DNA from: Ruminococcus albus 7 = DSM 20455
GTDB lineage: Bacteria > Bacillota > Clostridia > Oscillospirales > Ruminococcaceae
Reading direction: 5' to 3'
DNA: 32,000 nt
Assembly (NCBI RefSeq): GCF_000179635.2
Contig: NC_014833.1
Location: 450,001-482,000, forward strand
The notes beneath the pieces are model-generated. The model was not told the DNA's origin, made no database searches, and was given only the letters and a program-made list of their open reading frames with translations. The translations under genes and the position numbers were made by a program. Positions within the stretch are counted from its first letter, which is position 1, and each line of letters starts with the position of its first letter. Shown in pieces: positions 70-31,394 of the stretch.

Positions 70-1098
70 ATGACAATATTTGTAACAGGCGGCGCGGGCT
101 TTATTGGCTCAAACTTCGTTTTCCATATGCTGGATACCTATCCTGATTATCGTATAGTATGTCTGGATAAACTGACCTATGCAGGCAATCTTTCCACACT
201 TGAACCCGTGATGAAGAACCCGAATTTCAGGTTCGTGAAGATAGATATCTGCGACAGAGAAGCTATATACAAGCTGTTTGAGGAAGAAAAGCCCGATATC
301 GTTGTGAATTTCGCGGCTGAATCTCACGTTGACCGTTCTATCGAGAACCCCGAGATATTCCTGCAGACCAACATTCTCGGCACACAGGTGCTGATGGACG
401 CTTGCAGAAAGTACGGCATACAGAGATATCATCAGGTATCCACCGATGAAGTTTACGGCGATCTGCCCCTTGACAGACCCGACCTGTTCTTCACCGAGGA
501 GACACCCATACACACTTCTTCACCCTATTCGTCTTCAAAGGCGGGTGCTGATCTGCTGGTTATGGCTTATCACAGAACTTACGGTCTGCCTGTGACTATT
601 TCCAGATGTTCCAACAACTACGGTCCCTATCACTTCCCCGAGAAGCTGATACCCCTGATGATAGCAAATGCACTGGCTGACAAGCCCCTGCCTGTATACG
701 GTGAGGGTCTGAATGTCCGCGACTGGCTGTACGTTGAGGATCACTGCCGCGCTATCGACCTGATAATCCACAAGGGAAAAGTCGGCGAAGTTTACAATGT
801 CGGCGGACACAACGAGATGAAGAACATCGACATAGTAAAGCTTATATGCAAGGAACTTGGCAAGCCCGAAAGCCTTATCATACACGTTGAGGACAGAAAG
901 GGTCACGATATGCGTTACGCTATCGACCCCACAAAGATACACAACGAACTGGGCTGGCTGCCCGAGACTAAGTTTGCGGACGGTATCAAGAAGACTATTG
1001 ACTGGTACCTGAACAACCGTGAATGGTGGGAAACAATAATAAGCGGAGAATATCAGAACTACTACGAGAAGATGTACGGTAATCGTGCGGAGGTCTGA
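70..1098 (+). CDS. rfbB: dTDP-glucose 4,6-dehydratase
   Basis: 342 aa. N-terminal Rossmann motif TGGAGFIGSNF, an STDEVYG motif and YSSSK (the YxxxK catalytic motif of extended SDRs). The overall sequence is typical of RmlB. AAGGAG RBS upstream. Confidence 0.95.
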   Translation: MTIFVTGGAGFIGSNFVFHMLDTYPDYRIVCLDKLTYAGNLSTLEPVMKNPNFRFVKIDICDREAIYKLFEEEKPDIVVNFAAESHVDRSIENPEIFLQTNILGTQVLMDACRKYGIQRYHQVSTDEVYGDLPLDRPDLFFTEETPIHTSSPYSSSKAGADLLVMAYHRTYGLPVTISRCSNNYGPYHFPEKLIPLMIANALADKPLPVYGEGLNVRDWLYVEDHCRAIDLIIHKGKVGEVYNVGGHNEMKNIDIVKLICKELGKPESLIIHVEDRKGHDMRYAIDPTKIHNELGWLPETKFADGIKKTIDWYLNNREWWETIISGEYQNYYEKMYGNRAEV

Positions 1099-4104: not shown

Positions 4105-4105
4105 T

Positions 4106-5338
4106 ATGAAGATCGCAGTTGCGGGTACAGGATATGTGGGACTTTCGCTGGCGGTATTGCTGGCGCAGTATAATTCTGTTACCGCTGTTGACATCGTACC
4201 CGAAAAGGTGGACATGATAAACAGTAAAAAATCGCCCATTCAGGACGATTACATAGAGAAATATCTTGCCGAAAAAAAACTCGACCTCACTGCAACTCTT
4301 GACGGCGAGAGCGCATATAAGGACGCTGAATTTGTTATAATCGCAGCCCCCACCAACTACGACCCGAAGAAAAATTTCTTCGATTGCAGTGCGGTTGAAG
4401 CAGTTATCGGACTTGTACAGAAAGTCAATCCCGATGCGATAATGGTCATAAAATCCACCATACCTGTTGGATATACCAAGAGCGTGCGCGAGAAGTTCGG
4501 TACAAAAAACATAATTTTCAGCCCCGAGTTTCTGCGCGAAAGCAAGGCACTTTATGATAACCTCTATCCCAGCCGTATCATTGTCGGTACCGATATGGAG
4601 GATGAGCGTCTTGTAAAAGCAGCACATACCTTTGCTGCACTGCTGCAGCAGGGCGCAATAAAAGAGGATATCGACACTCTGTTTATGGGCTTCACCGAGG
4701 CTGAGGCTGTAAAGCTGTTCGCAAATACTTATCTTGCACTGAGAGTAAGCTATTTCAACGAGCTTGACACATACGCAGAGATGAAAGGTCTTGATACCCA
4801 GCAGATAATCAACGGTGTTTGTCTTGACCCTCGTATAGGTACGCATTATAATAATCCTTCCTTCGGCTACGGCGGATATTGTCTGCCCAAGGATACCAAG
4901 CAGCTGCTTGCGAATTATGCTGATGTTCCGCAGAACATGATGTCTGCTATAGTTGAATCCAACAGGACGAGAAAGGATTTCATCGCAGACAGAGTTCTCG
5001 AAAAGGCAGGATACTATTCGTCGAACAGTTCGTGGGATTCTACCAGTGAAAAGAATGTTGTTATAGGCGTTTATCGTCTGACAATGAAATCCAACAGTGA
5101 TAATTTCCGTCAGAGTTCCATACAGGGCGTTATGAAGCGTATCAAGGCTAAGGGTGCAACAGTTATAATCTACGAGCCCACCCTGAAGGACGGCGAAACA
5201 TTCTTCGGAAGTCAGGTCGTGAATGACCTTGAAAAATTCAAGGCTGAGTCTGCGGCTATCATCGCCAACAGATATGACAGCTGTCTTGATGATGTGCAGG
5301 AGAAGGTCTACACCCGTGACCTTTTCAGAAGAGATTGA
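4106..5338 (+). CDS. ugd: UDP-glucose 6-dehydrogenase
   Basis: [14 protein letters not shown] Rossmann start and the catalytic-Cys motif [10 protein letters not shown]. The true start is ATG 4106 with GGAGG upstream. The track's 4007 start is only an in-frame read-through extension overlapping the previous gene. Confidence 0.93.
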
Positions 5339-5344
5339 TGTGAT

Positions 5345-5376
5345 AAAGGCACTTCTGTGTAAGGAGTGCCTTTTTG
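5345..5376 (+). terminator. Rho-independent terminator after ugd
   Basis: AAAGGCACTTC / GGAGTGCCTTT stem (about 11 bp including one G-U pair), 7-nt loop, followed by TTTTT. Confidence 0.7.
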
Positions 5377-5441
5377 TTTGTGATATTTGACTATTTTGCG
5401 AATTGAGATTTGTACTTTCTGCTAAAAATAATAAGAAATTA

Positions 5442-5470
5442 TTGAAAAATTTGGGATAATCTGTTATAAT
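5442..5470 (+). promoter_or_regulatory. Sigma-A type promoter for the lipoprotein gene
   Basis: TTGAAA (5442-5447), 17-nt spacer, TGT-TATAAT (extended -10; TATAAT at 5465-5470). Confidence 0.55.
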
Positions 5471-5547
5471 CAAGACGTTGGAAAATAAGGTGGGTGACAC
5501 CGCGACAGAATTAGGGTATATCCCGGATTCAGAAAGGTTGGGTTTTA

Positions 5548-6480
5548 ATGAAAAAAGTTCTCGCATTGACTCTCGCACTGACAATGTCTGCTATGATGTT
5601 TGCTTCGTGCGGTGATTCTAAGGATGAAAGCAAAGCTGATGCGTCTTCAAAGGCTGCAGCATCGGAGGCTGCGGAGGGACAGGCTGATGTGTCAGAGGCA
5701 GCTGAGGAGTCGGAAGCAGCTGAAGAAACAAGCGCTCCCGAAGTGACAGAAGAACCTGCCGAAAGCGAGGCAGAGGCTGCACCTGAGATTGCAGAATTTG
5801 ACAGAACAAAGGTGATAGGCTACGATGAAACAGCAACCGAAACTGTTATCGAGCTGACAGACCAGATATCGGATGCATGGACAAACGGTCTGGGTTCATA
5901 TTCTGTTGAAGGCGGCAGCGGTGATAACTATGTCGACGGCAGATGCTTTGACAGAGATAAGGATGTACACATGGTAGTTGAGTTTGAGTACACCGAGAAG
6001 TTCAATCAGATGATCGAGGAGGATATCACAGATCAGCACAAGCAGCAGATCGTTATAGGTCCCGGTCACGCTAACGGCTGGAACAAGTTCGGTGAGACAT
6101 TTGAGGGACTTATTACCGACTATCCTGCAGTGAATGATCCGAACCTGAAAGATTACGTGGTAGCTAACGGTGAAGATCTGGCAACACCCGAAACCAAGGA
6201 TGAAGCATCCAAGACGGATCAGGTATGGCCTGATGTATTCGTTAAGTCTGACGGATTCATAAAGATAGGCAATCACGATGTAAAGTCTGTTGAGTTCACT
6301 ATCCCCGCGGCTGAGATCAATGCACTTATCGACAATTCCACACTCGATCCCGATGATCCCGAGAAGTGGGGCGATGGTATAATGTTCCAGATCGGCGGCA
6401 ATATGTACATTACCAAGATCACCATAGATCAGGGCAACGTTTTCCTGAAATCTCAGATCGCTGAAAGCGGAATGGCATGA
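5548..6480 (+). CDS. Secreted lipoprotein with an acidic Glu/Ala-rich linker, function unknown
   Basis: Signal peptide with lipobox (MMFASC, Cys21). About 70 aa of low-complexity E/A/S-rich sequence, then a roughly 220-aa globular domain that I cannot assign to a family. Confidence 0.75.
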   Translation: MKKVLALTLALTMSAMMFASCGDSKDESKADASSKAAASEAAEGQADVSEAAEESEAAEETSAPEVTEEPAESEAEAAPEIAEFDRTKVIGYDETATETVIELTDQISDAWTNGLGSYSVEGGSGDNYVDGRCFDRDKDVHMVVEFEYTEKFNQMIEEDITDQHKQQIVIGPGHANGWNKFGETFEGLITDYPAVNDPNLKDYVVANGEDLATPETKDEASKTDQVWPDVFVKSDGFIKIGNHDVKSVEFTIPAAEINALIDNSTLDPDDPEKWGDGIMFQIGGNMYITKITIDQGNVFLKSQIAESGMA

Positions 6481-14499: not shown

Positions 14500-14572
14500 G
14501 GGGGTTTAGCTCAGCTGGGAGAGCATCTGCCTTACAAGCAGAGGGTCACAGGTTCGAGCCCTGTAGTCCCCA
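14500..14572 (+). tRNA. tRNA-Val (anticodon TAC)
   Basis: Hand-folded canonical cloverleaf: acceptor GGGGGTT/AGTCCCC, D arm GCTC-AGCTGGGA-GAGC, anticodon arm TCTGC-CTTACAA-GCAGA, T arm ACAGG-TTCGAGC-CCTGT. No encoded CCA. Confidence 0.93.
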
Positions 14573-14618
14573 TCAGTCAGATGTGTGCAGAACTTATCTG
14601 CACACGACTCTCTGACAC

Positions 14619-14692
14619 GGCCCGGTAGTTCAGTTGGTTAGAACGCCGCCCTGTCACGGCGGAGGTCGTGAGTTCGAGTCTCATCCGGGTCG
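14619..14692 (+). tRNA. tRNA-Asp (anticodon GTC)
   Basis: Acceptor GGCCCGG/CCGGGTC, anticodon arm CCGCC-CTGTCAC-GGCGG, T arm GTGAG-TTCGAGT-CTCAT, discriminator G. Confidence 0.93.
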
Positions 14693-14699
14693 CTTATAT

Positions 14700-14775
14700 G
14701 CTTCTGTAGCTCAGTCGGTAGAGCAGGGGACTGAAAATCCCCGTGTCGGTGGTTCAATTCCACTCGGAAGCACCA
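14700..14775 (+). tRNA. tRNA-Phe (anticodon GAA), CCA encoded
   Basis: Acceptor GCTTCTG/CGGAAGC, anticodon arm GGGGA-CTGAAAA-TCCCC, T arm GGTGG-TTCAATT-CCACT, discriminator A followed by CCA. Confidence 0.93.
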
Positions 14776-14778
14776 TTT

Positions 14779-14851
14779 GCGGATTTAGCTCATCTGGTAG
14801 AGCGCCACCTTGCCAAGGTGGAGGTAGCGAGTTCGAGCCTCGTAATCCGCT
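14779..14851 (+). tRNA. tRNA-Gly (anticodon GCC)
   Basis: Acceptor GCGGATT/AATCCGC, anticodon arm CCACC-TTGCCAA-GGTGG, T arm GCGAG-TTCGAGC-CTCGT, discriminator T. Confidence 0.93.
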
Positions 14852-14893
14852 CTCAGTATCCCGATGCTTAGGTATCGGGATACATTAATTAAT

Positions 14894-14967
14894 GCGGGTT
14901 TATTTCAACGCTAGAATACCTTTCTTCCTGAGAGGAGAAACTTGTTTAACTCAAGTGACCCGCTCCA
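14894..14967 (+). tRNA. Atypical tRNA-like gene with a Gly (UCC) anticodon, non-canonical D and T loops and encoded CCA
   Basis: Hand-folded cloverleaf. Acceptor GCGGGTT/GACCCGC, then T8 A9. D stem TTC/GAA with D loop AACGCTA (no GG). Anticodon stem CCTTT/AGAGG with loop CTTCCTG. Variable region AGAA. T stem ACTTG/CAAGT with T loop TTTAACT. Discriminator T, then CCA. Flanked by hairpins at 14856-14883 and 14971-14993. Not validated with a covariance model. Confidence 0.6.
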
Positions 14968-14970
14968 CTG

Positions 14971-14998
14971 AATGCCGATAGTTTATCGGCATTTTTTA
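14971..14998 (+). terminator. Terminator-like hairpin plus T-tract inside the tRNA cluster
   Basis: AATGCCGATA / TATCGGCATT stem followed by TTTTT, ending only 4 nt before tRNA-Gly(CCC). It may act as a partial terminator or a processing/stability element. Confidence 0.5.
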
Positions 14999-15001
14999 TA
15001 T

Positions 15002-15074
15002 GCGGATTTAGCTCATCCGGTAGAGCGCCACCTTCCCAAGGTGGATGTGGCGAGTTCGAGTCTCGTAATCCGCT
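15002..15074 (+). tRNA. tRNA-Gly (anticodon CCC)
   Basis: Near-identical paralogue of the GCC gene: acceptor GCGGATT/AATCCGC, anticodon arm CCACC-TTCCCAA-GGTGG, T arm GCGAG-TTCGAGT-CTCGT, discriminator T. Confidence 0.92.
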
Positions 15075-18202: not shown

Positions 18203-19366
18203 ATGGGAGCTGTCTCCACAAGTAAGAAGTCGAGTGCGGGCAAGAACGTACTGGTGTTCTTCATCGTATTCATTATATTGGAAATGCTGGTGATATTCGG
18301 CATTGGCAAGGTGTTCAAGAACAAGGACGTTACACCCAGCGTTATGGGCTACAGCCTGTTCATGACAAAAGAAGACCTGGTGAAGGCCGATAAAGACGGT
18401 ACTGTGGTTGTTCCGAAGAATGTGCTGGTAATAGCCCGCGATGGTCTGACCGAGCCTAAAAATAAGATCGGTTCTGCGATACTCTGTGAGGATGTTGATG
18501 GTGTTGGCACAGGCGTTTTCTGGCTGGATAATCTCGAATCAAAGGATGAAGAGAACGGCGTAGATTATATTGTTACTAACGGAAATCAGAGTCATGTTAT
18601 AAGAAGCGGAAATATCGTAGGTGTATGCGCAAGCTATTTTGTTACTGCAGGCAAGGTAATTAACTTTGTCACACAGAAGTTCGGTATGATCTGCTGCGCA
18701 GTAGTACCTCTGTTCCTGCTTGTACTTATTGAGCTTATTATAGCAATAGCTAATCATTCACCTGAAGAGTATGAAGAAGATGAAGAGGAAGAAGAAAACG
18801 TCAAAAGCGTTGAACTTGATGATTTCCTTTTCGGCGGCAAGGGCGAAAGTGAGCAGATAGCTAAACGCAGGAAAAAGCAGTCTTCTTCTGAGGATGAAGA
18901 GTTTGAAGAAGAGGATGAGCTGACAGTAAGAAAGGCTGCTTCAAATACTCAGGCAGCATCTGAAAGCGACGTTGACTTTGATTTTGATGTTAACAAACTC
19001 AAAAAGCCTGCAGCTGCTGAACGTGACTTCGGTGAGGCTATTGGTTTTGGCAGCAATACACAGAAGTTCAAAGCGGCAAAGGCAGATGATATATCTGATG
19101 ATATCAATGTTCCTGCTCAGAACAATGAGGCGCCTGCTGACAACGGAAGCCTGCGTCTGAAAGATGATGAGTACTACGAGAAGGCATCACAGCTGGTAGA
19201 AGGCAGTAACGCTGCAAGACCTGCAAGACGTCCTGCCGGAGGACAAAGACGCAGAAGACGTCCGGTATCCTCTGCTGCAAATGGTGTAGACAGCGGAGCA
19301 TCTCTGGAAGATCTGATGAAGCTGATGGAAGAAGAACAGAACAAACTCAAGAATCAGATCAAGTAA
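18203..19366 (+). CDS. Two-TM membrane protein with a long disordered, highly charged cytoplasmic tail, unknown function
   Basis: 387 aa: N-terminal TM helix, about 130-aa extracytoplasmic domain, second TM helix, then about 200 aa of acidic runs (EEYEEDEEEEE, EDEEFEEEDE) and an Arg-rich patch (RPARRPAGGQRRRRRP). The topology vaguely recalls SipW-type signal peptidases, but no catalytic motif is clear. Confidence 0.6.
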   Translation: MGAVSTSKKSSAGKNVLVFFIVFIILEMLVIFGIGKVFKNKDVTPSVMGYSLFMTKEDLVKADKDGTVVVPKNVLVIARDGLTEPKNKIGSAILCEDVDGVGTGVFWLDNLESKDEENGVDYIVTNGNQSHVIRSGNIVGVCASYFVTAGKVINFVTQKFGMICCAVVPLFLLVLIELIIAIANHSPEEYEEDEEEEENVKSVELDDFLFGGKGESEQIAKRRKKQSSSEDEEFEEEDELTVRKAASNTQAASESDVDFDFDVNKLKKPAAAERDFGEAIGFGSNTQKFKAAKADDISDDINVPAQNNEAPADNGSLRLKDDEYYEKASQLVEGSNAARPARRPAGGQRRRRRPVSSAANGVDSGASLEDLMKLMEEEQNKLKNQIK

Positions 19367-19544: not shown

Positions 19545-20123
19545 TCATCGCGGCGGCTGAGCATATGAATGCTTTTTCAATGCCTGAGATATTGGCTTAT
19601 ACAGCATAAAACATATAGCTGCATTCAGTGCGCTTTTGATAAGGTTGAATGGCAGCAGGAGAGGCATTATCATGCCTATTACCTCGTCAATGGTGGTATG
19701 TGCATATATCGGTGTGATGAACAAATTCATCACCAGCATAACGGCAGTCATGCTGAACATGGCGGCGATAAGACCAATTACTGCGCCCTTGAAACTTTTG
19801 TTGTACTTGTATATCAGCGATGCTGTAACGGCAAATGCGGCGCTTCCGCCAAAATTCATAACCGCCCCGAGAAATCCTGTGTCGGACAGTGTTACCATCT
19901 CCAGCAGAGATTCTGCCAAGGCTACACCCAAAGCAGCCAATGGCCCGAAAACAAATCCTGCCATTGTGATGAACACGTCTTTGAATTCGAGGGTGAGGAA
20001 GCTGACTTTGAATCTGAAAACGAACAGACACAGATAACCAAGTGCGGTGAACATCGCCAGTATCGTCATTTCCTTGACATCCATTTTTTTGGAAGAGGAA
20101 GCACCCGCTGTTTTTGTACTCAT
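19545..20123 (-). CDS. ribU: ECF transporter S component, riboflavin-specific (RibU-like)
   Basis: 192 aa, about 6 TM helices, typical ECF S-component architecture. Substrate is assigned from the FMN riboswitch directly upstream. Confidence 0.8.
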   Translation of the reverse strand: MSTKTAGASSSKKMDVKEMTILAMFTALGYLCLFVFRFKVSFLTLEFKDVFITMAGFVFGPLAALGVALAESLLEMVTLSDTGFLGAVMNFGGSAAFAVTASLIYKYNKSFKGAVIGLIAAMFSMTAVMLVMNLFITPIYAHTTIDEVIGMIMPLLLPFNLIKSALNAAICFMLYKPISQALKKHSYAQPPR

Positions 20124-20194: not shown

Positions 20195-20209
20195 GATTTT
20201 TATGATGTC

Positions 20210-20349
20210 GTTTCTTTCATCCGGACTATACCGTCGGTACGGGTTTCTCACCCGTTCGGCGCCGGGCACACTGGCGAGGCGTTCGAGGACTTACAGCATA
20301 ACAGAAACTGCTGCTCACCTCCGGTGTGGACTTTCACCACCCCTGAAAC
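20210..20349 (-). promoter_or_regulatory. FMN riboswitch (RFN element)
   Basis: The minus strand reads GTTTCAGGGGTGGTGAAAGTCCACACCGGAGGT...GCCGAACGGGTGAGAAACCCGTACCGACGGTATAGTCCGGATGAAAGAAAC. This matches the conserved RFN cores (GGTGAAA-TCC, ACCGG-GGT, CCGACGGTATAGTCCGGATG-AGA) with a closing P1 of GTTTC/GAAAC. Confidence 0.9.
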
Positions 20350-20388
20350 TAATTTATAGATATATGCCCTGTAACAGATCGCAGGATA

Positions 20389-20805
20389 TTATTCCTCGTC
20401 CTCATCCTCGGAGAAATCAAATTCAAGACTCTCTCCACAGTTCGGACATTCTATCGAACCGCTCTCGACCATTTTATCGTCCATTACGATAGTTTCGCCG
20501 CATGTGGGGCATACGCACTCATAAAGAGTGTCATCATCCGGATCGTAGTCATAATCTTCGTCATCATCATCGTCACCGTAGAACTCATTGTAGAAGTCGT
20601 CCTCCAGATCGGAAAGATCGTCGCTTATGCTGTCAACTACATCAACAGTTTCATCAGCAAGTACTGTAACGTCCTCGATAGCCTTAGCCATCTCCTCCAT
20701 CAGTTCAGCCATTGCCTTCAGTACCTTGCCCTGATCGGTAGTTTCATCGATCTTCATGCCTTCCATAAGACCCTTGATATAAGCTGCCTTGTTAGTAAGC
20801 TCCAT
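20389..20805 (-). CDS. Highly acidic small protein with a C-terminal zinc-ribbon, unknown function
   Basis: 138 aa. Helical N-terminus, Asp/Glu/Tyr-rich middle (GDDDDDEDYDYDPDDD), then CPTCG...(16 residues)...CPNCG. AAGGAGG RBS. Lies 45 nt downstream of efp on the same strand. Confidence 0.7.
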   Translation of the reverse strand: MELTNKAAYIKGLMEGMKIDETTDQGKVLKAMAELMEEMAKAIEDVTVLADETVDVVDSISDDLSDLEDDFYNEFYGDDDDDEDYDYDPDDDTLYECVCPTCGETIVMDDKMVESGSIECPNCGESLEFDFSEDEDEE

Positions 20806-23082: not shown

Positions 23083-23117
23083 AAAGCGGTCAGCTATTAT
23101 GGTTGACCGCTTTTTTT
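23083..23117 (+). terminator. Rho-independent terminator (left boundary of the AT-rich operon region)
   Basis: AAAGCGGTCA / TGACCGCTTT 10-bp stem followed by TTTTTTT. Confidence 0.7.
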
Positions 23118-23427
23118 ACATTATCAATGATCTGCAAGCTTAACTGTTCAAAAATCACATTCCTGTTTATTGACGGTACATATATATTAATGAAGGAATG
23201 ATGCGAACCATTTTTACTGATAACAGACTTGTTTTGTATTAAGATAATTTGAAATTTAAACTAAGATGTCATTACTCCGGGTTGGAGAAATGGATTATAA
23301 TTAAACTACCATATGTTATTATTCTTTGTTGAAACAATGAATAAATCACAAATGAAAATACCGGGTCACAGCATATATTATACTGTGACAGAACATAAAA
23401 TAAACTTATAACAACAGGGGCAATAAT

Positions 23428-24577
23428 ATGATCAGTTTTAATGTACCGCCGGTAGTCGGTAATGAACTCGGATTTATAGCTGAAGCAGTGGAAAATAGAC
23501 GTATTTCAGGTGATGGTGATTTCACGAAGCGCTGCAGCAGGCTTATGGAAAAACGCTTTGATGCGCGTCACGTACTGATAACTACGAGCTGCACCAGTGC
23601 TCTTGATATGGCTGCACTTTTATGCGGTTTCAATGAGGGCGATGAGGTCATTCTTCCAAGCTATACCTTGCTATACCTTTTCCAGTACCGCCAATGCTAT
23701 TATACTTGGCGGTGCAGTGCCTGTATTTGTAGATGTTCGTCCCGATACCATGAATATCGACGAAACGAAAATAGAAGCAGCAATAACTCCGCGTACAAAA
23801 GCCATAACTGTTATGCATTACGGCGGTGTAGCCTGCGAAATGGATACTATAATGGATATAGCGCACAGGTATGGTCTTATGGTCATAGAAGATGCAGCTC
23901 AGGGAGTCATGAGCACCTATAAGGGAAAATATCTCGGTACTATAGGAGATTTTGGGTGCTATTCGTTCCACGAGACTAAGAATTACTCTATGGGCGAGGG
24001 CGGGGCGCTGCTCATAAATAATGATGCTTATCTTGAAAGAGCGGAGATACTACGTGAGAAAGGAACGAATCGTTCCAAGTTTTACCGCGGTGAGATAGAC
24101 AAATACACATGGGTAGATTTCGGAGACAGCTATCTTCCAAGCGAGATAAATGCGGCGTTTCTCTAGGGACAGCTGCAGATGCTTGATGAGATAAACAATG
24201 ATCGTCTTACAACTCACCGCATATACTCAGAAGCCTTTGGACCTCTGGTAAAAAAGGGACTTATAGAGATACAGAACATCCCGGATGGCTGCTGTCATAA
24301 TGCTCATCTTTTCTATATAAAGCTGCGTGATCTTGAACATAGGACAGAGTTCATAAAATATATGAAGGAAGCAGGTATAACTACGGTATTCCACTATGTA
24401 CCGCTGCATTCTGCTCCCGCAGGTATACATTACGGCAGATTCAGCGGAAAAGATATTTATACGACAAAGAAAAGTGAACGTCTGGTCAGGCTTCCTATGT
24501 ATTACGGAATGACAGATGAGGACAGGCATACTGTAACGGAAACTGTCTTGTCTTTCTTTGTGATGACGGAGGAATGA
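23428..24577 (+). pseudogene. WecE/RffA-like dTDP-4-amino-4,6-dideoxyhexose (DegT/DnrJ/EryC1 family) aminotransferase, disrupted by a frameshift and an in-frame stop
   Basis: Three consecutive ORF fragments (23428-, 23597-24166, 24179-24577) together align collinearly with my recollection of E. coli WecE. Matching motifs: FNVPPVVGNEL, SCTSALDMAALL, DEVILPSYT, VFVDVRPDTMNIDET, HYGGVACEMDTIM, EDAAQGVMSTYKG, FHETKNY, REKGTNRS, DKYTWVD, NAHLFYIKL, FHYVPLH. A 10-bp tandem duplication of GCTATACCTT at 23660-23679 shifts the frame. TAG at 24164-24166 replaces a Trp codon. Removing the duplication gives about 379 codons. Confidence 0.85.
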
Positions 24578-24580
24578 CTA

Positions 24581-26992
24581 ATGCCTGACGAAAAGAACAT
24601 GATCAAACACCCTTTACTTAAATTGTTTTTTACTTCTTTTTTCTTGTTTCTTGTCGGTATTTCTCCCATACTCATCATTTCAAAGGGCGTGTATATGTGG
24701 ACAGGAGACTATAATGAACAGACTATTGTATTTACCGAATATATAAGCAAGCTGCTGCACAGCGGTCAGGGATTCCCGGCTTTTGACTGGAATTCCTTCC
24801 TGGGTATGGATTTTCTTACCTCTTATCATGATCACATTTTTTCTCCGTTTGACTGGCTGATGTACGCGGTCCCGACCGGTGTTATGCCTTACATACATAC
24901 TGTTGTTATGGCATTGAAAGTCGGATTATCAGCAGTAACAGCTTATATTTACTGCCGTCAGTATGTCAAAAAAGATCAGAGCGCCTATTTATGCGGTCTG
25001 CTGTATGCTTTTTCCGGTTTTCAGCTGTTTGATCTGGTATATCAGTTTTCGGAAAGATATCTTATGTTTCCGCTGATGTTGTATTGCTTTGATCAGTTGG
25101 TGATAAACAGAAAGCCGTTCTGTTTTGCTGCACTTCTTGGAATTTATTGTCTTATAAGTCCTGTTTTTGCTTGGATGACGTGTCTGTTCCTGTTGATATA
25201 TTACATCGTCAGGACCGCAACAAAGAGTTTCCCGAAACTTGATCTGAAACTGTTCATGCGTCTGGCAATTGAAACCGGCTGCGGTGTTCTTATGAGTGCT
25301 ATGTTGATGCTGCCTTTCTATAGCGTTCTTTCGGGAAATGCCCGTGCAGACGGAAAGATATTCAGCCACAGTCTGATAGCTTATGAGAATCCCGGAGTAG
25401 TGCTGTGTATAATAAGATCAATGTTTTTTCCGCCGGCTTTATGTGCTAACGACTGGTATTTCAGGAACAGTCAGTTGAGTATATCTCCGCCGCTGTTGTA
25501 TATACCCCTGTTCTTGATACTGGGTGTATACATGATATTCAAGAAGGAAAAACGTGCGTGGTATAGTGTACTGTTGAAAGTATGCATCATATTTGCTTGT
25601 GTACCTGTTCTCAACAGTTCTTTTGCAGTATTCAATAACAGGTATTATGCGCGCTGGCTTTTTATGCCTCTGCTTGTTATGATAATGATGACCGGCAGAT
25701 ATATAGATAATATCGAAGATGCAAAGCCGAAAAAAGAACTTCGGATATGTGCGGCGATCGTAGGATTTATGATCGTATACGGTGTATATACGGCTTGCTT
25801 TGAAAAGCCGCGGATTTACGGGAATAGAGCCTGGATCATCATGGCTGCTGTTTCACTGTTTGGAATGATCGTGCTGTATCTTCTTCATTATCCTATGGAT
25901 AAGGTAAGCTTTATCTCTGTAAGAAATATACGTAAGCTTGTGTGTGTGTGCTGTGTTTTGCCATTTTTTGGTACGGCATTCTTTCTTGCACAGGAAAACT
26001 ATTTTGAAAGTATCCCAAAACAGAAAGACATTATGTGGAATGGCTCTGAACCTGTAGTGATAGATGATGATGAATTCTTCAGGACTTCATACTGCATGAC
26101 AAACACTAAAAACAAATCAATGATCTGGGGGTATCCCACAATAGCAACTTTTAACTCCATGATAACCGGAGATACCAGCAGTTTCCTGGGAGAAACAGGA
26201 AATAATTTTAACAAGAAGATCAATCTGACATTTGATACTGATAATTATGCATTGTGCAGCTTCCTTTCGGTGAAATATGATCTTTATTGCAACCTTCTTC
26301 TTACGGGAGGTATCGAAGTTGAACCGGAAGATCTGAATAAGCATATAGAGGGTTTTGAACAGGATAAGGTAATAAATCGTTATGTATTATATAAAAACAA
26401 GGCGTTTATACCTATGGGTTTTACCTATGACAACTATATCAGGATAGATGCGCAGCCTCATAATAGCGATGAGGATAGCAGGAAGATGTATGATGACAAG
26501 GTTGACAGGCAAAAACTTTTTCTGAAGGCTATATGGCTCACGGATGAACAGATAGAGAAATATGGTGATATATTACAGGAATTGCCCGAAGATAAATATA
26601 ATGATGTATCTGTTGAAACCTATTATCAGGACTGCCGCGACCGTGCTGCCAGCGCTTGCTACGAATTTGTGCCTGATAAGACCGGATTCAATGCACGTAT
26701 CGACCTGCCGAAGGATAATCTTGTATTTTTCTCAGTACCTTACAATAGATATTTTACTGCATATATTGACGGCAGCCCCACAGAGATCGAACGCGTATTC
26801 AACGGACTTTCGGCGGTATATGTACCGCAGGGAGATCACAGTATCTCGTTCAGGTACAGGATACCAGGGTTCAAGTACGGAGTTATCATTTCGTCTGTGA
26901 GTGCAGGGATACTGCTTATATATACGGCTGTCGATCTGATACTTAAACGCAGGATACGCAGTAAGGACGGAACGGCTGTGAATGAAGCATAG
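24581..26992 (+). CDS. YfhO-family GT-C membrane glycosyltransferase
   Basis: 803 aa. About 12-14 N-terminal TM helices, a large extracytoplasmic C-terminal domain and a final TM helix plus basic tail. This is the architecture of YfhO/GtlB-type lipid-linked sugar transferases. GGAGG RBS 8 nt upstream. Starts 4 nt after the pseudogene stop. Confidence 0.8.
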   Translation: MPDEKNMIKHPLLKLFFTSFFLFLVGISPILIISKGVYMWTGDYNEQTIVFTEYISKLLHSGQGFPAFDWNSFLGMDFLTSYHDHIFSPFDWLMYAVPTGVMPYIHTVVMALKVGLSAVTAYIYCRQYVKKDQSAYLCGLLYAFSGFQLFDLVYQFSERYLMFPLMLYCFDQLVINRKPFCFAALLGIYCLISPVFAWMTCLFLLIYYIVRTATKSFPKLDLKLFMRLAIETGCGVLMSAMLMLPFYSVLSGNARADGKIFSHSLIAYENPGVVLCIIRSMFFPPALCANDWYFRNSQLSISPPLLYIPLFLILGVYMIFKKEKRAWYSVLLKVCIIFACVPVLNSSFAVFNNRYYARWLFMPLLVMIMMTGRYIDNIEDAKPKKELRICAAIVGFMIVYGVYTACFEKPRIYGNRAWIIMAAVSLFGMIVLYLLHYPMDKVSFISVRNIRKLVCVCCVLPFFGTAFFLAQENYFESIPKQKDIMWNGSEPVVIDDDEFFRTSYCMTNTKNKSMIWGYPTIATFNSMITGDTSSFLGETGNNFNKKINLTFDTDNYALCSFLSVKYDLYCNLLLTGGIEVEPEDLNKHIEGFEQDKVINRYVLYKNKAFIPMGFTYDNYIRIDAQPHNSDEDSRKMYDDKVDRQKLFLKAIWLTDEQIEKYGDILQELPEDKYNDVSVETYYQDCRDRAASACYEFVPDKTGFNARIDLPKDNLVFFSVPYNRYFTAYIDGSPTEIERVFNGLSAVYVPQGDHSISFRYRIPGFKYGVIISSVSAGILLIYTAVDLILKRRIRSKDGTAVNEA

Positions 26993-27005
26993 TGAGGCGT
27001 AATAT

Positions 27006-27371
27006 ATGAAAGGATCCGATAAAAAATACTTTCTTCTTATGCATCTGATCGTGTTGGTGATGTCGTTCGGCGGGGTGTTTTCAAAAAAGGCTGCTGCAGA
27101 AAAGTTCTTGTCTTTGAAATGGATCGTCCTGTACGGAGCTCTGCTGCTGGTGCTTATGGTATATGCTGTGTTCTGGCAGCAGATATTAAAACACTTGAAA
27201 CTAAGTACTGCTTATGCCTGCAGATCGGTCACGGTCGTATGGGGAATGGTGTGGGGCATACTGTTCTTCAACGAACAGCTCACTGCCAAGCAGATCATCG
27301 GCGGCATGATAGTTATTGTCGGAGTGATATTTGTTTCGTCCGGAAAGGAGTATCATGACAAGGTTGACTAA
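27006..27371 (+). CDS. Small 4-TM DMT/SMR-like protein (EamA half-transporter, ArnE-like)
   Basis: 121 aa with four TM helices. C-terminal motif (GILFFNEQLTAKQIIGGMIVIVGVIFV) is typical of EamA/SMR-like domains. Confidence 0.75.
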   Translation: MKGSDKKYFLLMHLIVLVMSFGGVFSKKAAAEKFLSLKWIVLYGALLLVLMVYAVFWQQILKHLKLSTAYACRSVTVVWGMVWGILFFNEQLTAKQIIGGMIVIVGVIFVSSGKEYHDKVD

Positions 27372-27699
27372 ATATGCGCTTATTCTGGTGTTAAGTTCGC
27401 TGATATCGTCGTTTTCACAGATACTTTTGAAAAAATCGGCAGGAAAACAATACAGTTCAAAGCTGCGTGAGTATCTGAACATACCTGTGATGACCTCGTA
27501 TGGAGTGTTTTTTCTTTGTACACTGATCTCTATGTACGGACTGAAGGTCGTGCCGCTGTCCATGTCACCGCTGCTTGATGCTACGGGATATATTTTTGTT
27601 ACGATACTTAGTTTCCTGTTTTTTCGAGAGATACCTGAAAAAAAGCAAGTTTTCGGTCTTGGTCTGATACTGATCGGGATCATTGTATATGCGATATAG
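27355..27699 (+). CDS. Small 4-TM DMT/SMR-like protein (EamA half-transporter, ArnF-like partner)
   Basis: 114 aa from ATG 27355 (AAGGAG at 27345-27350), overlapping the upstream gene by 17 nt. Four TM helices with a C-terminal FFREIPEKKQVFGLGLILIGIIV motif. The paired arrangement resembles heterodimeric ArnE/ArnF. Confidence 0.72.
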   Translation: MTRLTKYALILVLSSLISSFSQILLKKSAGKQYSSKLREYLNIPVMTSYGVFFLCTLISMYGLKVVPLSMSPLLDATGYIFVTILSFLFFREIPEKKQVFGLGLILIGIIVYAI

Positions 27700-27731
27700 A
27701 GTTTATGAGTATGTAAAGGAATGATTATAGA

Positions 27732-28694
27732 ATGGATATATCGGTAGTGGTACCTGTATACGGCTGCCGCTCCGCACTGCCTGTGTTGTGTGAACGGCTG
27801 AACAACACGCTTTCTTCGATAGTGAATGAGTATGAGATCATACTTGTTGAGGATCACTGTCCGCAGGGTTCCTGGGAAAGCATAAAGGAACTGTGTGAAA
27901 ATGACAAGCGTATAAAGGGTATACATCTTTCACGTAATTTCGGACAGGCTAATGCGATCACAGCGGGTATTGATATATGTACGGGTGATTGGGTAGTCGT
28001 TATGGATTGTGATCTTCAAGATCCGCCGGAAGCGATCGTTGATCTTTATAAGAAAGCGCAGGAAGGGTATGATGTTGTATTTGCAAGGCGTATCCAAAGA
28101 AAGGATACTGCTGTCACACTTTTTCTATCAAGATCGTTCTATCGCGTGCTGAGCTATTTTACTGAGGAGGATATAGATCCTTCGATAGGTAATTTCAGTG
28201 TATCTCGCAGATCTGTTATTGAAAATTATTGCAGGATGAGAGAACAGAACCGTGCGTATCAGATGTTCATAAAGTGGCTCGGATTCAGACAGACTTCGAT
28301 AGATATCGAATGTGAAGAACGCTATGAGGGCAGATCGTCTTATAATATGCGGAAAAAGATACGGTTCGCAGTTTCTCTTATAACCACTCATTCCAATAAA
28401 CCTCTGAAGCTGTCTATTAAGCTGGGTTTCATTCTGTCATCTCTTGCTATGATATACATACTGGTGCTTATAATCCAGAAGATCATGGGACGTGACATAC
28501 TTGCCGGCTGGACGAGTATTATTGCAGCGGTAGTCATCATGGGTGGACTGATACTGATGATGCTGGGTATAGTAGGCATATATATCGGCAATATTTTCAA
28601 TGAGGTCAAGAACAGACCTATATATGTGATAAGTGAGGCTATCAATTGTGAAAACAGATATGGTGGGGATAGTAAGAAATGCAGCACAGATTAG
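27732..28694 (+). CDS. GT2 polyprenyl-phosphate glycosyltransferase (ArnC/GtrB/CsbB-like)
   Basis: 320 aa. A GT-A fold N-terminus (VVVPVYG, ILVEDHC, FGQANAITAG, DCDLQD as the DxD motif) plus two C-terminal TM helices. This is the signature layout of enzymes that load a sugar onto undecaprenyl phosphate. Confidence 0.85.
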   Translation: MDISVVVPVYGCRSALPVLCERLNNTLSSIVNEYEIILVEDHCPQGSWESIKELCENDKRIKGIHLSRNFGQANAITAGIDICTGDWVVVMDCDLQDPPEAIVDLYKKAQEGYDVVFARRIQRKDTAVTLFLSRSFYRVLSYFTEEDIDPSIGNFSVSRRSVIENYCRMREQNRAYQMFIKWLGFRQTSIDIECEERYEGRSSYNMRKKIRFAVSLITTHSNKPLKLSIKLGFILSSLAMIYILVLIIQKIMGRDILAGWTSIIAAVVIMGGLILMMLGIVGIYIGNIFNEVKNRPIYVISEAINCENRYGGDSKKCSTD

Positions 28695-29941
28695 TAATTA
28701 TCGGTTCTTTATACGAAAATGTTCAATTGGTCATAGAGGCAAAAAAGCGCGGTTATTATACGATAGTATGTGACGGTTATAAGAACGGACACGCGAAGAA
28801 TATAGCAGATAAGTATTATGATATTGATATACGTGATACGGAAAAAGTTGCTGAGATGTGTATCAGAGAAAAGGCTGATGGCATATTGGGATCATTTTCT
28901 GATCTTGTGTTTGAAAAAATAACTGAGATAGCACATAAAGCAGGTATTGAATGGTATGCTTCGGCAGATATGCTCAAATACTATAGGGATAAGAAACAGG
29001 CAAAGGATCTGCTGCGCTCTCTGGGTGTGAGCGTTCCGGAAAACAGGATCATAAACAAGGATTTTTCCGATGAGGATATCAAAGGACTGAGTTTTCCTCT
29101 TGTGGTAAAGCCCTCGAATGCATGGGGCTCAAAGGGGATATATGTGGTAAACAACAGCGAAGAACTTCGGCTGTATGCAGAAAAGTCGGCAGAGATCTCA
29201 CATTCAGAAAAGGTGTTGGTCGAGGAATACAGCAAGGGAGGAGAATACAATATCACCTCGTTTGTAGCGGAAGGAAAGGTCTATGTTATCAGCTGCGGAG
29301 ACCGTGAGAAGACCAGATGTGAAGATAAGTCCATACCAAGACTGAGCCGTATTTTTTACAATACCTCACGGCATGATGACATAATTGAAGCAGCAAGGGT
29401 GACGCTCCAGAAATTTGCAGATGCTGTCGGTCAGAAGTACGGCGTGCTGTCAATGCAGTGCTTTTTCTACAAAGGTACTCTTACAGTATGTGAGATAGCA
29501 GGAAGGATACTTGCATTTGAAAATGATATCATAGGCGCTCATTCTGGGCTGAGTATAAATCAGCTGCTGCTGGATTGTGTTTATGATAAAGCTGCTTTGA
29601 AAGAGAAACTGATACAAAGCAGGGGATACGTTCCTTCAAAATTATATGCAAGACTATATTTTTTTGCGTATGACGGACATATCATAGAAAATATGGATAA
29701 TGTGTACGAGCTATGTAAATATGATAAGCTCACTGATGATATCGTTTTTTATAATGAGGGAGAAAAAATAGATAACAGAAGTACCAGATCATATTTTGCG
29801 ACTTTCTCATTCACAGCAGATTCCATCGCAGATATGGATCGTACTACGGATCATTTTGCAGAAAAAATGAAAGTGTTTTCAACGGACGGCAAGAACATTA
29901 TCTGTCCGATCAATCTGGATAATGACCGTGATTATAAATAA
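28679..29941 (+). CDS. ATP-grasp domain carboxylate-amine ligase, substrate unknown
   Basis: 420 aa. A pre-ATP-grasp Rossmann-like N-terminus, then a KDLLRSLGVSVPE...FPLVVKPSNAWGSKGIYVV...VLVEEY pattern typical of ATP-grasp enzymes. Overlaps the GT2 stop by 16 nt, suggesting translational coupling. Confidence 0.8.
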   Translation: MQHRLVIIGSLYENVQLVIEAKKRGYYTIVCDGYKNGHAKNIADKYYDIDIRDTEKVAEMCIREKADGILGSFSDLVFEKITEIAHKAGIEWYASADMLKYYRDKKQAKDLLRSLGVSVPENRIINKDFSDEDIKGLSFPLVVKPSNAWGSKGIYVVNNSEELRLYAEKSAEISHSEKVLVEEYSKGGEYNITSFVAEGKVYVISCGDREKTRCEDKSIPRLSRIFYNTSRHDDIIEAARVTLQKFADAVGQKYGVLSMQCFFYKGTLTVCEIAGRILAFENDIIGAHSGLSINQLLLDCVYDKAALKEKLIQSRGYVPSKLYARLYFFAYDGHIIENMDNVYELCKYDKLTDDIVFYNEGEKIDNRSTRSYFATFSFTADSIADMDRTTDHFAEKMKVFSTDGKNIICPINLDNDRDYK

Positions 29942-30074
29942 AAATTGGTTATCTCTTTGGCACACCGATCTGAAAGCAGATGTGATATTGAGTATTTATT
30001 GAGATCACTGTAAAAGGGCTGTATTGCTTGGTGCGTCAGGGTGATAAAATATAATATTGAAAAGAGGAAAGATA

Positions 30075-31301
30075 ATGAGCAGAGATATGTCATATTTAAA
30101 AGGGATGCCTGTAGCGGTCCTTGGAAGTGGTGCAGTAGGTAAAACGATAGCTGCAGATTGTAAGCTGGCAGGTTCGGAAGTCAGACTATGGGGCAGTGAG
30201 GAGTATTACGAGAGTTCAATGAAGATACTTCATAAATCGGGGATACTTCTTGACGGCATTCAACGCAACAGGGACGGGTTTGAGCGCTCCGGCAAAGCTT
30301 ATCTTGATGTAATCTCTACTGATATGGCAGAGGTTGTAAAGGGTGCTGGAATAATATGCGTTGCTACTACTTCCTGGAGACATGAAGCTATGTTCAGGCA
30401 GCTGATACCTTGTCTTGAAGACGGACAGGTCGTAATGGTATTTACAGATAACTGGGCAAGTCTTCTGCTAAGAAAGATGATGAGAGAAGCAGGCTGCACT
30501 AAAGACGTTATAGTTGGCGGATGGTCTTCTGCTCCTTATGGTACAAGAATTGAAAAGATCAATGATTACTGGCTGCCTCATGTTGGCGTAAAGTACAGAG
30601 CTATCAGCCTCAGAGGTGCTGCTATGCCTGCAAAGGACAGCGATGATTTTATTGAAGCATCCAGATATCTTCCGGCTATGGACAGTGTTACACAAGGTGA
30701 TGGTCCTGTTAAGGGTGATACGATCCTGGATATTGATTTTGCTAATGTAAATCCGGTTATCCATGTCCCGGCATCTGTTCTTGGTGTATCAAGTATGGAG
30801 AACTGGGTACTTGTCTACGGAAATGCACCGGAGACATATTCAATGTATTCTCACGGACTATGCCCTTCTATTTGTGAGGTACAGTATCAATTCTTCAATG
30901 AAGAGATAGCACTTGCAAAGAAACTTGGTGTCGGATGTCCGAGGTACAAGAAGCAGATGTTCTTCTCCAGAAGAAGTGTTCTGACGCAGGAGTATATGGG
31001 TCTTGATAAAGACGGAAACGATAATGTCGTTTTTCCGCTTGATCAGCCTTCCGATGAGGGAAATGTCGGTCCGAACAACATAAATCACAGATACCTGACA
31101 GAGGATATCCCGGTAAGCTGTAAGCTGTATCATGACCTTGGCGTTGCATACGGAGTTCCGACACCTGTCATTGACGCTATGATCATTCTGGGCGGTGCAT
31201 TCCATCAGACTAACTATTTTGTTGATGACAGATATACGCTCGATTATATCGGTATAGGCGGAATGAGCATTGAGGAGCTTAATGATTATCTGAGAAACTG
31301 A
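30075..31301 (+). CDS. NAD(P)-dependent octopine/nopaline (opine) dehydrogenase family protein
   Basis: N-terminal Rossmann VAVLGSGAVGKT. The C-terminal HRYLTEDIPVSCKLYHDLGVAYGVPTPVIDAMI matches the conserved RY-x-x-ED-x-P...G-V-x-TP motif I associate with the Octopine_DH domain. ATG 30075 (AGAGGA RBS) is preferred over the track's TTG 30057. Confidence 0.75.
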   Translation: MSRDMSYLKGMPVAVLGSGAVGKTIAADCKLAGSEVRLWGSEEYYESSMKILHKSGILLDGIQRNRDGFERSGKAYLDVISTDMAEVVKGAGIICVATTSWRHEAMFRQLIPCLEDGQVVMVFTDNWASLLLRKMMREAGCTKDVIVGGWSSAPYGTRIEKINDYWLPHVGVKYRAISLRGAAMPAKDSDDFIEASRYLPAMDSVTQGDGPVKGDTILDIDFANVNPVIHVPASVLGVSSMENWVLVYGNAPETYSMYSHGLCPSICEVQYQFFNEEIALAKKLGVGCPRYKKQMFFSRRSVLTQEYMGLDKDGNDNVVFPLDQPSDEGNVGPNNINHRYLTEDIPVSCKLYHDLGVAYGVPTPVIDAMIILGGAFHQTNYFVDDRYTLDYIGIGGMSIEELNDYLRN

Positions 31302-31361
31302 TGATCCTGCGTTCGATTTGAACGACAGTGTGCTGATAGTATAAAGTACGACAAAAACTGA

Positions 31362-31394
31362 AAGGCTGCGTGCTCGTAAGGAACACGCAGCCTT
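31362..31394. terminator. Bidirectional terminator between the opine-DH-like gene and the convergent peptidase gene
   Basis: AAGGCTGCGTG / CACGCAGCCTT 11-bp stem. The minus-strand side is followed by TTTCAGTTTTTG. Confidence 0.65.

Follow-up and report, generated by a model that had tools for sequence, protein, structure and literature searches.

A probable seven-gene glycosylation operon in Ruminococcus albus 7

Herein we analysed a window of 32,000 nt from the genome of Ruminococcus albus 7 = DSM 20455 (GCF_000179635.2, contig NC_014833.1, positions 450,001-482,000, forward strand), in which the genes of an ATP-grasp ligase and of an enzyme of the opine-dehydrogenase family (hereafter OpDH) close a glycosylation operon. 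An original prediction, made from the sequence of this stretch, had proposed that the two enzymes together could build an opine-type decoration of a sugar. The operon comprises seven genes in the order WecE-type aminotransferase, YfhO, two SMR/EamA proteins, GT2, ATP-grasp and OpDH, the last of which ends the unit. Its features, with those that bound it, are given below in window coordinates, together with the basis of each assignment.

23083..23113, + strand: terminator-like hairpin ending the upstream pfk gene, left boundary of the transcription unit (pattern scan)
23352..23389, + strand: promoter-like hexamers (23352-23381) overlapping a 25-nt palindrome (23365-23389), 5' of the first gene (consensus match only)
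23428..24577, + strand: WecE-type dTDP-4-keto-6-deoxyglucose 4-aminotransferase, a pseudogene in the window (DegT/WecE family; two lesions)
24581..26992, + strand: YfhO-family membrane glycosyltransferase of the GT-C type, 803 aa, presumed extracytoplasmic transferase to an acceptor polymer or protein (PF09586, 224 bits)
27006..27371, + strand: small EamA/SMR membrane protein 1, ArnE/ArnF-like, presumed flippase subunit for a lipid-linked sugar (ArnE/ArnF matches below cut-offs)
27355..27699, + strand: small EamA/SMR membrane protein 2 (ATG 27355 fits the 114-aa gene of relatives; the open reading frame (ORF) listing starts at TTG 27331)
27732..28694, + strand: GT2 glycosyltransferase of the polyprenol-phosphate type, PgfS/ArnC/CsbB-like (PF00535, 99.5 bits)
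28679..29941, + strand: ATP-grasp ligase, 420 aa, presumed to form an amide between an amino-acid-type carboxylate and a sugar 4-amino group (PF13535, fold, context)
29942..30074, + strand: spacer between ATP-grasp and OpDH, 133 nt (no terminator-like site)
30075..31301, + strand: opine-dehydrogenase-family enzyme OpDH, 408 aa (PF02317, catalytic residues, fold)
31362..31394, no strand assigned: hairpin with a 14-bp stem between the converging OpDH and M24 peptidase genes, ending the operon (pattern scan)
70..1098, + strand: RmlB-type dTDP-glucose 4,6-dehydratase, outside the cassette and 22 kb off (family match)

The ATP-grasp gene is translationally coupled to the GT2 gene, which it overlaps by 16 nt (28679-28694), and a Shine-Dalgarno-like purine-rich motif (GGTGGGGA) stands 5' of its ATG. 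OpDH follows on the same strand after 133 nt, and a pattern scan of this spacer found no terminator-like site, the strong hairpins being those at 23083-23113 and 31362-31394 only; both the overlap and the terminator-free spacer had been described in the original prediction and were confirmed at these coordinates. The predicted RNA fold of the spacer is modest (z -2.26 vs shuffled sequence), the spacer has no T-run, and neither it nor the operon leader has an Rfam match, the matches in the window being confined to 14500-15074 and 20205-20354. OpDH can start at TTG 30057 (414 aa) or at ATG 30075 (408 aa), in both cases ending at 31301, and we favour the latter because a GAGGAA sits 5 nt before the ATG; the protein had earlier been given the same family but a length of 409 aa, of which only the family stands.

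The upstream genes display the three-component layout of YfhO-dependent systems, with a YfhO GT-C enzyme, a GT2 with C-terminal membrane segments (two hydrophobic segments are visible in its translation) and, between them, the two EamA/SMR genes. The best NCBIfam matches of the GT2 are PgfS (233 bits) and ArnC (166 bits, E 1.4e-48), both under the respective equivalog cut-offs.

Family identity of the terminal gene product

OpDH matches PF02317 (Octopine_DH) over residues 215-376 with 102.6 bits against a cut-off of 30, while its N-terminal part carries the Rossmann motif GSGAVG at residues 17-22 and a match to the N-domain family PF01210; in the structure model, strands beta1 and beta2 span residues 13-16 and 36-39. 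The best solved relative is N-(1-D-carboxyethyl)-L-norvaline dehydrogenase (CENDH, 1bg6), aligned over the full length at E 6.8e-18 and ~22% identity, with octopine dehydrogenase next, and glycerol-3-phosphate (G3P) dehydrogenase is reached by sequence at E 0.2 only. H230 in the segment NVNPVIH aligns with NVNAVMH of 1bg6, and R339 and D344 in HRYLTEDIP align with NRYLTEDIP of the octopine dehydrogenase 3c7a; all three residues are invariant in 12 diverse homologues. The catalytic His, Arg and Asp of octopine dehydrogenase are H212, R324 and D329, with equivalents in CENDH. In the fold search, ranks 1-11 were all opine dehydrogenases (CENDH, octopine dehydrogenase and yersinopine/pseudopaline dehydrogenase), with staphylopine dehydrogenase at ranks 14-15, and the match to CENDH reached a template-modelling (TM) score of 0.64 when normalised by the query and 0.74 when normalised by the target. 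By sequence and by model alike, the 408-aa protein is a genuine opine-dehydrogenase-family enzyme. It groups with the opine dehydrogenases and not with the G3P dehydrogenases or ketopantoate reductases that had been named as the adverse outcome, since the PF02317 match, the CENDH alignment and the leading fold matches all point the same way.

Ketopantoate reductases and D-mandelate dehydrogenases belong to the same wider superfamily with a 6PGDH-like C-terminal domain and do appear as weaker fold matches, next to weak N-terminal matches of OpDH to G3P dehydrogenase and ApbA. The enzyme might on these grounds be a plain NAD(P)H oxidoreductase acting on a 2-oxo acid or a 4-keto sugar, in which case the acyl group would be a hydroxy acid or another non-opine, and N-acyl groups such as 3-hydroxybutanoyl are indeed known on 4-amino-4,6-dideoxyglucose (Qui4N) (PMC10609480). 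We consider this very unlikely: the full-length best matches are genuine opine dehydrogenases, the His, Arg and Asp matching the catalytic residues of octopine dehydrogenase and CENDH are invariant, ketopantoate reductases enter the fold search only from E 7e-11, ~7 orders of magnitude weaker, and the carboxylates used by ATP-grasp enzymes of the L-amino-acid-ligase type are those of amino acids.

The presence of staphylopine, pseudopaline and yersinopine dehydrogenases in the same fold family, and among the fold matches, is also what one would expect if the pair made an opine-type metallophore or another secreted small molecule with no relation to a glycan, an alternative that the original prediction had left standing. 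To this we attach very little credence, given that no CntL- or CntK-type genes are present, that no CntL-like nicotianamine synthase, racemase or metallophore exporter/importer occurs in the operon or its syntenic relatives, that Cnt-type dehydrogenases were undetected by sequence at E <= 1 with OpDH as query, and that the ATP-grasp gene is coupled to a glycosyltransferase gene.

The ATP-grasp ligase and its amino-sugar module

The ligase matches PF13535 (37.6 bits, cut-off 27) and PF07478 (34.3 bits, cut-off 24), and in an alignment of 18 homologues K144, E182, E183, E272 and R276 are invariant. Conserved lysine and acidic residues of this kind bind ATP and Mg in the ATP-grasp superfamily. 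The structure model has a predicted local distance difference test score (pLDDT) of 91; its best fold match is 3vot (BL00235, TM 0.77-0.82), followed by 4dim, an Anaerococcus structural-genomics entry deposited as phosphoribosylglycinamide synthetase, and then by YwfE, RizA and BacD. PylC is the second-best NCBIfam match and the best that is an amino-acid ligase. Both L-amino-acid ligases and PylC activate an amino-acid carboxylate. The model suggests a mechanism akin to that of L-amino-acid ligases, although we claim no membership of that family, and to judge from the genomic context the nucleophile would be the amine of a sugar.

A scan of metagenomes with the alignment of 18 homologues as query retrieved 461 relatives of the ligase, the best 80 of which were analysed; here and below, L-numbers (L084 and so on) label the genome or metagenome stretches that bear homologues. 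Where enough upstream sequence was available (58 loci), a GT2 gene ends no more than 1.2 kb 5' of ATP-grasp in 52 cases. GT2 and SMR genes are present in every one of the 29 loci that are flanked by at least 5 kb on either side, and 19 of these loci have a WecE-like aminotransferase that is 64-83% identical to that of the window; YfhO and OpDH occur in one of the 29 each, and Ugd in none. A DUF2142 membrane protein takes the place of YfhO in many of the analysed loci. Because GT2 and SMR are constant, WecE-like enzymes frequent and Ugd absent, we assign the ligase to an amino-sugar module of lipid-carrier glycosylation, and take its partner to be an amino sugar.

The same counts bear on the uronic acids that the original prediction had offered as a possible substrate, with the ugd and epimerase genes at 3040-5338 as their source. 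ATP-grasp would then activate the C6 carboxylate of glucuronic or galacturonic acid (GalA) and couple it to an amino acid, which OpDH would carboxyethylate; N-epsilon-(1-carboxyethyl)lysine-GalA is known chemically from Providencia and Proteus (PMC10609480), and the two genes do lie in the same window. However, Ugd accompanies none of the well-flanked ligases, as against 19 with a WecE-like aminotransferase, the cassette encodes its own amino-sugar-forming enzyme, and the ugd/epimerase genes lie 18 kb from the operon and outside the mobile cassette described below, behind ffh, an Rrf2 regulator gene, CorA, five tRNA genes, efp and pfk. Distance, cassette boundaries and zero co-occurrence rule these two genes out as part of the system, and we regard uronic-acid amidation by the pair as highly improbable.

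OpDH directly follows ATP-grasp in only 3 of 61 homologues, so that it is dispensable for the module and should be seen as an accessory and not a core component. Within the clade of the window, the ATP-grasp tree intermixes genes that are linked to OpDH with genes that have none.

In 53 mostly human-gut loci (L104-L167, e.g. L147:465-1427), a conserved protein of ~320 aa is encoded between GT2 and ATP-grasp; it has no Pfam or NCBIfam match, and its sequence loosely recalls DegT-type pyridoxal-phosphate enzymes.

Two genomic contexts of the opine dehydrogenase

We surveyed the OpDH family in 281 species representatives and clustered the neighbour genes in the best 80 loci. The protein is 65-81% identical across the representatives, nearly all of which come from gut or rumen, and its hosts include Bacillota, Bacteroidota, Spirochaetota, Synergistota, Desulfovibrionaceae, Fusobacterium, an alphaproteobacterium and a Gastranaerophilales metagenome-assembled genome (MAG). 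In 48 of the 80 loci a LysR regulator gene adjoins OpDH, usually in divergent orientation, and a MmgE/PrpD protein and transporters of the Na+/glutamate type, the Na+/alanine type or the TRAP type are often found there, which is a small-molecule context.

An ATP-grasp gene lies directly 5' of OpDH in 14 of the 80 loci, in 11 cases a homologue of the window's ligase and in three a more divergent one (L029, L047, L072). All 14 are glycan loci, with genes for DegT aminotransferases, GT2s, a Bac_transf priming transferase, a PIG-L deacetylase and Wzx-type flippases, and their hosts are Bacillota, Bacteroidota, Spirochaetota, a Dialister, an alphaproteobacterium and a Gastranaerophilales MAG. The glycan setting expected for the pair was hence found for every ATP-grasp/OpDH pair, the window included. 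From the ATP-grasp stop to the OpDH start the distance is -4 to +40 nt in all 14, the 133 nt of the window being the widest.

A neighbour-joining tree placed the ATP-grasp-linked OpDHs in two clades, apart from one large LysR-linked clade. The two groups share the same residue, at >=90% conservation, at 184 of 408 alignment positions, and four positions discriminate between them, most clearly residue 40, right after beta2. This residue is Asp in all 55 sequences of the metabolic (LysR-linked) clade and also in the NADH-dependent CENDH (…AWD…), whereas in all 17 others it is replaced, either by Gly40-Ser41 (the clade of the window) or by Ser-Arg with a three-residue deletion (a Bacteroidota/Spirochaete clade). 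Over these 72 OpDH genes, ATP-grasp is directly upstream in 15 of the 17 without the beta2 Asp and in 0 of the 55 with it (Fisher p = 1.2e-13). In Rossmann enzymes, an acidic residue that ends beta2 goes with NAD, and its loss, especially to Ser-Arg, with NADP. Read by this rule, the beta2 change seems to mark the conversion of a catabolic or fermentative enzyme into a biosynthetic, NADPH-leaning one whose active site is otherwise unchanged.

Two OpDHs without the beta2 Asp have no ATP-grasp gene upstream (L061:8664-9674 and L074). The gene 5' of OpDH encodes a GGGtGRT protein (PF14057, a family of unknown function) in L061, and in L074 the upstream ORF is of 248 aa.

The metabolic, NAD-type clade (L007, L013, L024, L027, L063, L071 and ~45 further loci; Oscillospiraceae, Peptoniphilus, Desulfovibrionaceae, Fusobacterium and others) has as neighbours LysR, MmgE/PrpD, GltS-like and Na+/alanine symporters, TRAP permeases and a class-I glutamine amidotransferase. 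Judged by these genes, it looks like an uncharacterised operon of gut anaerobes for using or fermenting opines or imino acids, and a role in the degradation of carboxymethyl- or carboxyethyl-lysine would be speculation. A tblastn search of plasmids with OpDH gave only distant homologues (<=46% identity) in uninformative contexts.

These distributions allow another reading, in which OpDH is a small-molecule enzyme of opine fermentation or catabolism that merely lies downstream, and ATP-grasp attaches a plain amino acid. Most of the family (55 of 72) is indeed found in metabolic contexts, the protein stays 65-81% identical whatever the context, the 133-nt spacer of the window could hold a promoter of its own, and most ATP-grasp modules do without OpDH. 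On the other hand, OpDH lies within -4 to +40 nt of ATP-grasp in 14 other loci from several phyla, the pairing is restricted to particular clades and goes along with loss of the beta2 Asp, the paired genes come without LysR regulator, PrpD or transporter, and in the window the spacer has no terminator, the hairpin standing only 3' of OpDH. Overall, we find an OpDH unrelated to the glycan distinctly unlikely.

A transporter in place of the opine dehydrogenase

Five close relatives that have no OpDH (L091-L093, L097, L098) carry, right after ATP-grasp, a gene for a GltS-like transporter; full-length comparison of this protein with the transporter of the OpDH-PrpD operons gives ~50% identity. What comes after the ligase is thus either OpDH or a transporter that elsewhere accompanies OpDH, and the simplest reading is therefore that the acid attached is a product or a substrate of OpDH. 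These sequence comparisons suggest that the acid substrate of the ligase is either made in the cell or imported. We slightly favour an order in which the opine is made free and then ligated, over one in which an amino acid is ligated and then carboxyalkylated, because of this transporter swap and because the active sites are nearly identical in both OpDH groups.

A mobile cassette with a broken aminotransferase gene

Positions 23289-31365 of the window are 98.7% identical at the DNA level to the metagenome contig L084. Similarity to other strains starts at 23289 and stops at 31365, inside the terminator hairpin, which delimits a block of ~8.1 kb whose G+C content (0.385-0.43) is slightly under that of its flanks. 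R. albus SY3 (L168, JEOB01000001.1, positions ~197984-215246) has the same seven genes, its ATP-grasp (RASY3_00820) being 99% identical to that of the window, in another neighbourhood, with a DDE transposase and a SUKH-3 gene on the 5' side and WYL, leucine-rich-repeat and phage-integrase genes on the 3' side. Because of this different neighbourhood, we conclude from the sequences compared that the seven-gene cassette is horizontally mobile and moves as a block of ~8.1 kb. The gene order is intact in SY3, in near-identical metagenome contigs and in one relative with an 87%-identical OpDH.

The aminotransferase gene of the window has two lesions, namely a frameshift caused by a 10-bp tandem duplication (GCTATACCTT, 23660-23669), and a change of codon 243 from TGG to TAG (W243 stop, 24164-24166). 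Once the duplication is removed in silico, the gene differs from that of L084, besides the W243 stop, by five amino-acid substitutions, all of them 3' of the stop. The gene is intact, with 379 aa, in L084, L085, L088 and SY3. Sequencing error was considered as a cause and rejected, as the two lesions are independent, the six other genes are intact and the changes are clustered after the stop; the window therefore holds a real pseudogene.

On the two WecE models, which have cut-offs of 375 and 435, the intact versions of L084, L088 and L168 reach 602 bits (602.5 for L084 on the model with cut-off 375), and they match E. coli WecE (PDB 4piw) at E 1e-155; the L084 orthologue is a full-length WecE above the equivalog cut-off, and the window copy is not. 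The WecE assignment is thus valid for the cassette and not for the window copy, in which the gene is broken. Since the intact orthologue scores as WecE, the amino sugar of the cassette is most probably dTDP-4-amino-4,6-dideoxy-D-galactose (Fuc4N).

Two further loci (L089/L090, ~4706-5863; ATP-grasp 69% identical) have an OpDH that is seemingly split into ORFs of 281 and 145 aa, with no aminotransferase, SMR or YfhO genes seen upstream, and may represent another decaying copy. Conserved genes of ~290 aa that match no family occur in related cassettes (L081:11268-12143, L005:7844-8713), 3' of OpDH in L081-L083 and 5' of ATP-grasp in L005, and have no counterpart in the window.

A proposed route to opine-decorated sugars

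We infer each chemical step of the following pathway, as well as the amino acid, the oxo acid and the acceptor, whereas gene content and order, coupling, family assignments, conservation and co-occurrence are observations. RmlB would supply dTDP-4-keto-6-deoxyglucose, its link to the cassette being itself conjectural, and the WecE-type aminotransferase would convert this to dTDP-Fuc4N. ATP-grasp would activate an amino-acid-type carboxylate by forming the acyl phosphate and would attach it to the sugar at the 4-amino group, replacing the N-acylation of WecD or ArnA. OpDH would reductively condense an amino group with a 2-oxo acid to give the acyl group of an N-(1-carboxyalkyl) amino acid, i.e., an opine, acting on the free amino acid before ligation (the slightly favoured order) or on the aminoacyl-sugar after it. 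The GT2 would then load the acylated sugar onto undecaprenyl phosphate, the SMR/EamA pair would flip the lipid-linked sugar across the membrane, and YfhO would transfer it to a wall polymer or surface protein. That the cassette places an amino-acid or opine acyl group on dTDP-Fuc4N before its lipid-linked transfer to the wall is, in our estimation, rather probable.

Several observations weigh against this pathway. OpDH occurs mostly outside glycan loci (55 of 72 genes) and seldom next to ATP-grasp (3 of 61), and its own expression, independent of the operon, is conceivable in the window because the spacer there is the widest. In the clade of the window the residues after beta2 read G-S-E-E, and the nearby Glu could still bind NAD; the argument for a cofactor switch is weaker here than in the Ser-Arg clade for this reason. 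The OpDH structure model has a pLDDT of 71, i.e., moderate confidence. The Arn equivalog cut-offs are all missed (ArnC 165.6 of 529 bits, ArnE 26.2 of 92, ArnF 28.4 of 99, ArnB 192 of 631), and the GT2 also falls below that of PgfS. Finally, the window copy is probably non-functional unless another aminotransferase supplies the amino sugar; with its own aminotransferase dead, it probably cannot make the product unaided. Opine decoration by the pair, as originally proposed, thus keeps its enzyme family and its glycan context, but loses the uronic acid, is set in the window beside a dead aminotransferase gene, and depends on an OpDH that is accessory to the module.

Chemists have known for decades that bacterial polysaccharides can bear opine substituents, among them alanopine on Qui4N and carboxyethyl-lysine on GalA. 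The full-text literature searched, the coverage of which excludes most subscription journals, yielded only these chemical precedents; in no paper was an opine dehydrogenase or this ATP-grasp family given a role in glycan biosynthesis, or any gene assigned to the opine substituents, in keeping with the earlier statement that such substituents have no well-defined biosynthetic genes, and a review of E. coli O-antigen genetics (PMC7685785) mentions neither ATP-grasp nor opine dehydrogenase. ATP-grasp and OpDH together are a plausible first genetic basis for opine-decorated sugars. The cassette provides a concrete, testable gene pair for opine-glycan chemistry and would carry this chemistry beyond enterobacterial O-antigens into gut anaerobes, Gram-positive ones among them, by an Arn-like route with an ATP-grasp ligase in place of the acyl- or formyltransferase. 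At the cell surface, charged zwitterionic side groups of this type could influence how phages adsorb, how cations are bound and how the immune system recognises the cell, and the OpDH family also marks a widespread, uncharacterised metabolic operon in gut bacteria.

A broader scenario would have at least five phyla of gut and rumen bacteria decorating their surface glycans with opines from a biosynthetic branch of one highly conserved opine dehydrogenase, the sister NAD-type branch (with LysR, MmgE/PrpD and GltS-like or alanine transporters, in Oscillospiraceae, Peptoniphilus, Desulfovibrionaceae and others) importing and degrading them, and some glycan loci, which have the transporter in place of OpDH, scavenging the opine. 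We think it unlikely in this full form; if true, it would amount to an opine economy of producers and consumers in the gut, and to the first genes for opine-bearing polysaccharides.

Other features of the window

Positions 70-5338 form a separate sugar-nucleotide block with RmlB, an Acyl_transf_3 membrane acyltransferase, RmlD, an epimerase/dehydratase and Ugd. As listed, the Ugd ORF (TTG 4007) overlaps the epimerase gene by 98 nt, and because its profile match begins at residue 34 the gene probably starts near 4106 instead. Five clustered tRNA genes lie at 14500-15074 (+ strand), and an FMN riboswitch (20205-20354, - strand) stands 5' of a minus-strand ORF of 192 aa (19545-20123). A small protein with a LysW-like zinc ribbon (20389-20805, - strand) adjoins efp. 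The ORFs at 5548-6480 (310 aa) and 18203-19366 (387 aa) have no Pfam match.

Comparison with known systems

OpDH shares with CENDH (1bg6) and octopine dehydrogenase (3c7a) the two-domain fold and the catalytic His/Arg/Asp, and differs from the NADH-dependent CENDH in having no beta2 Asp and in sitting in a glycan operon. The ATP-grasp ligase resembles L-amino-acid ligases (3vot, YwfE/BacD, RizA) and PylC, in which a carboxylate is turned into an acyl phosphate and joined to an amine. Its identity to the L-amino-acid ligases is 16-19%, and its presumed nucleophile is the amine of a nucleotide sugar as opposed to an amino acid. We know of no characterised L-amino-acid-ligase-like member in a GT2/YfhO operon.

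As a whole, the cassette is laid out like the Arn (PmrHFIJKLM) system, which modifies lipid A with 4-amino-4-deoxy-L-arabinose and in which an aminotransferase makes a 4-amino sugar nucleotide that is N-acylated, an ArnC-like GT2 and an SMR/EamA heterodimer flippase follow, and a GT-C enzyme acts outside the membrane; its SMR proteins match ArnE/ArnF at E 1e-5 to 1e-6. The cassette nevertheless appears to work like Arn without being a member, because all equivalog cut-offs are missed. Its sugar would be a dTDP-4-amino-4,6-dideoxyhexose (WecE-type) and not UDP-Ara4N, N-acylation would be due to an ATP-grasp ligase and not to a formyltransferase, no deacylase is encoded, the GT-C is YfhO in place of ArnT, and the host is Gram-positive.

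In the CsbB/GtcA/YfhO and Pgf systems of Bacillota, a GT2 charges a lipid carrier, a small flippase follows, and a YfhO-family transferase decorates teichoic acids or adhesins with plain hexoses or N-acetylglucosamine. The cassette likewise has a lipid-carrier GT2, for which PgfS is the best NCBIfam match, a small flippase and YfhO, the flippase being an ArnE/F-like pair in place of GtcA. To our knowledge, no CsbB/GtcA/YfhO or Pgf system comes with an aminotransferase, an ATP-grasp ligase or an opine dehydrogenase.

Amino-acid-bearing Fuc4N has a counterpart in Treponema medium, as Fuc4N-Asp (PMC10609480). In the literature searched, we found no report of biosynthetic genes for the alanopine-Qui4N of the Providencia alcalifaciens O35 O-antigen, in which, as cited in PMC10609480 from Ovchinnikova et al. 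2013, alanopine is amide-linked to Qui4N. The Providencia sugar belongs to a Gram-negative O-unit made by the Wzx/Wzy route, unlike that of the cassette, whereas the substituent itself, N-(1-carboxyethyl)alanine on the 4-amino group of a 4-amino-4,6-dideoxyhexose, is the type of product that we predict for the cassette.

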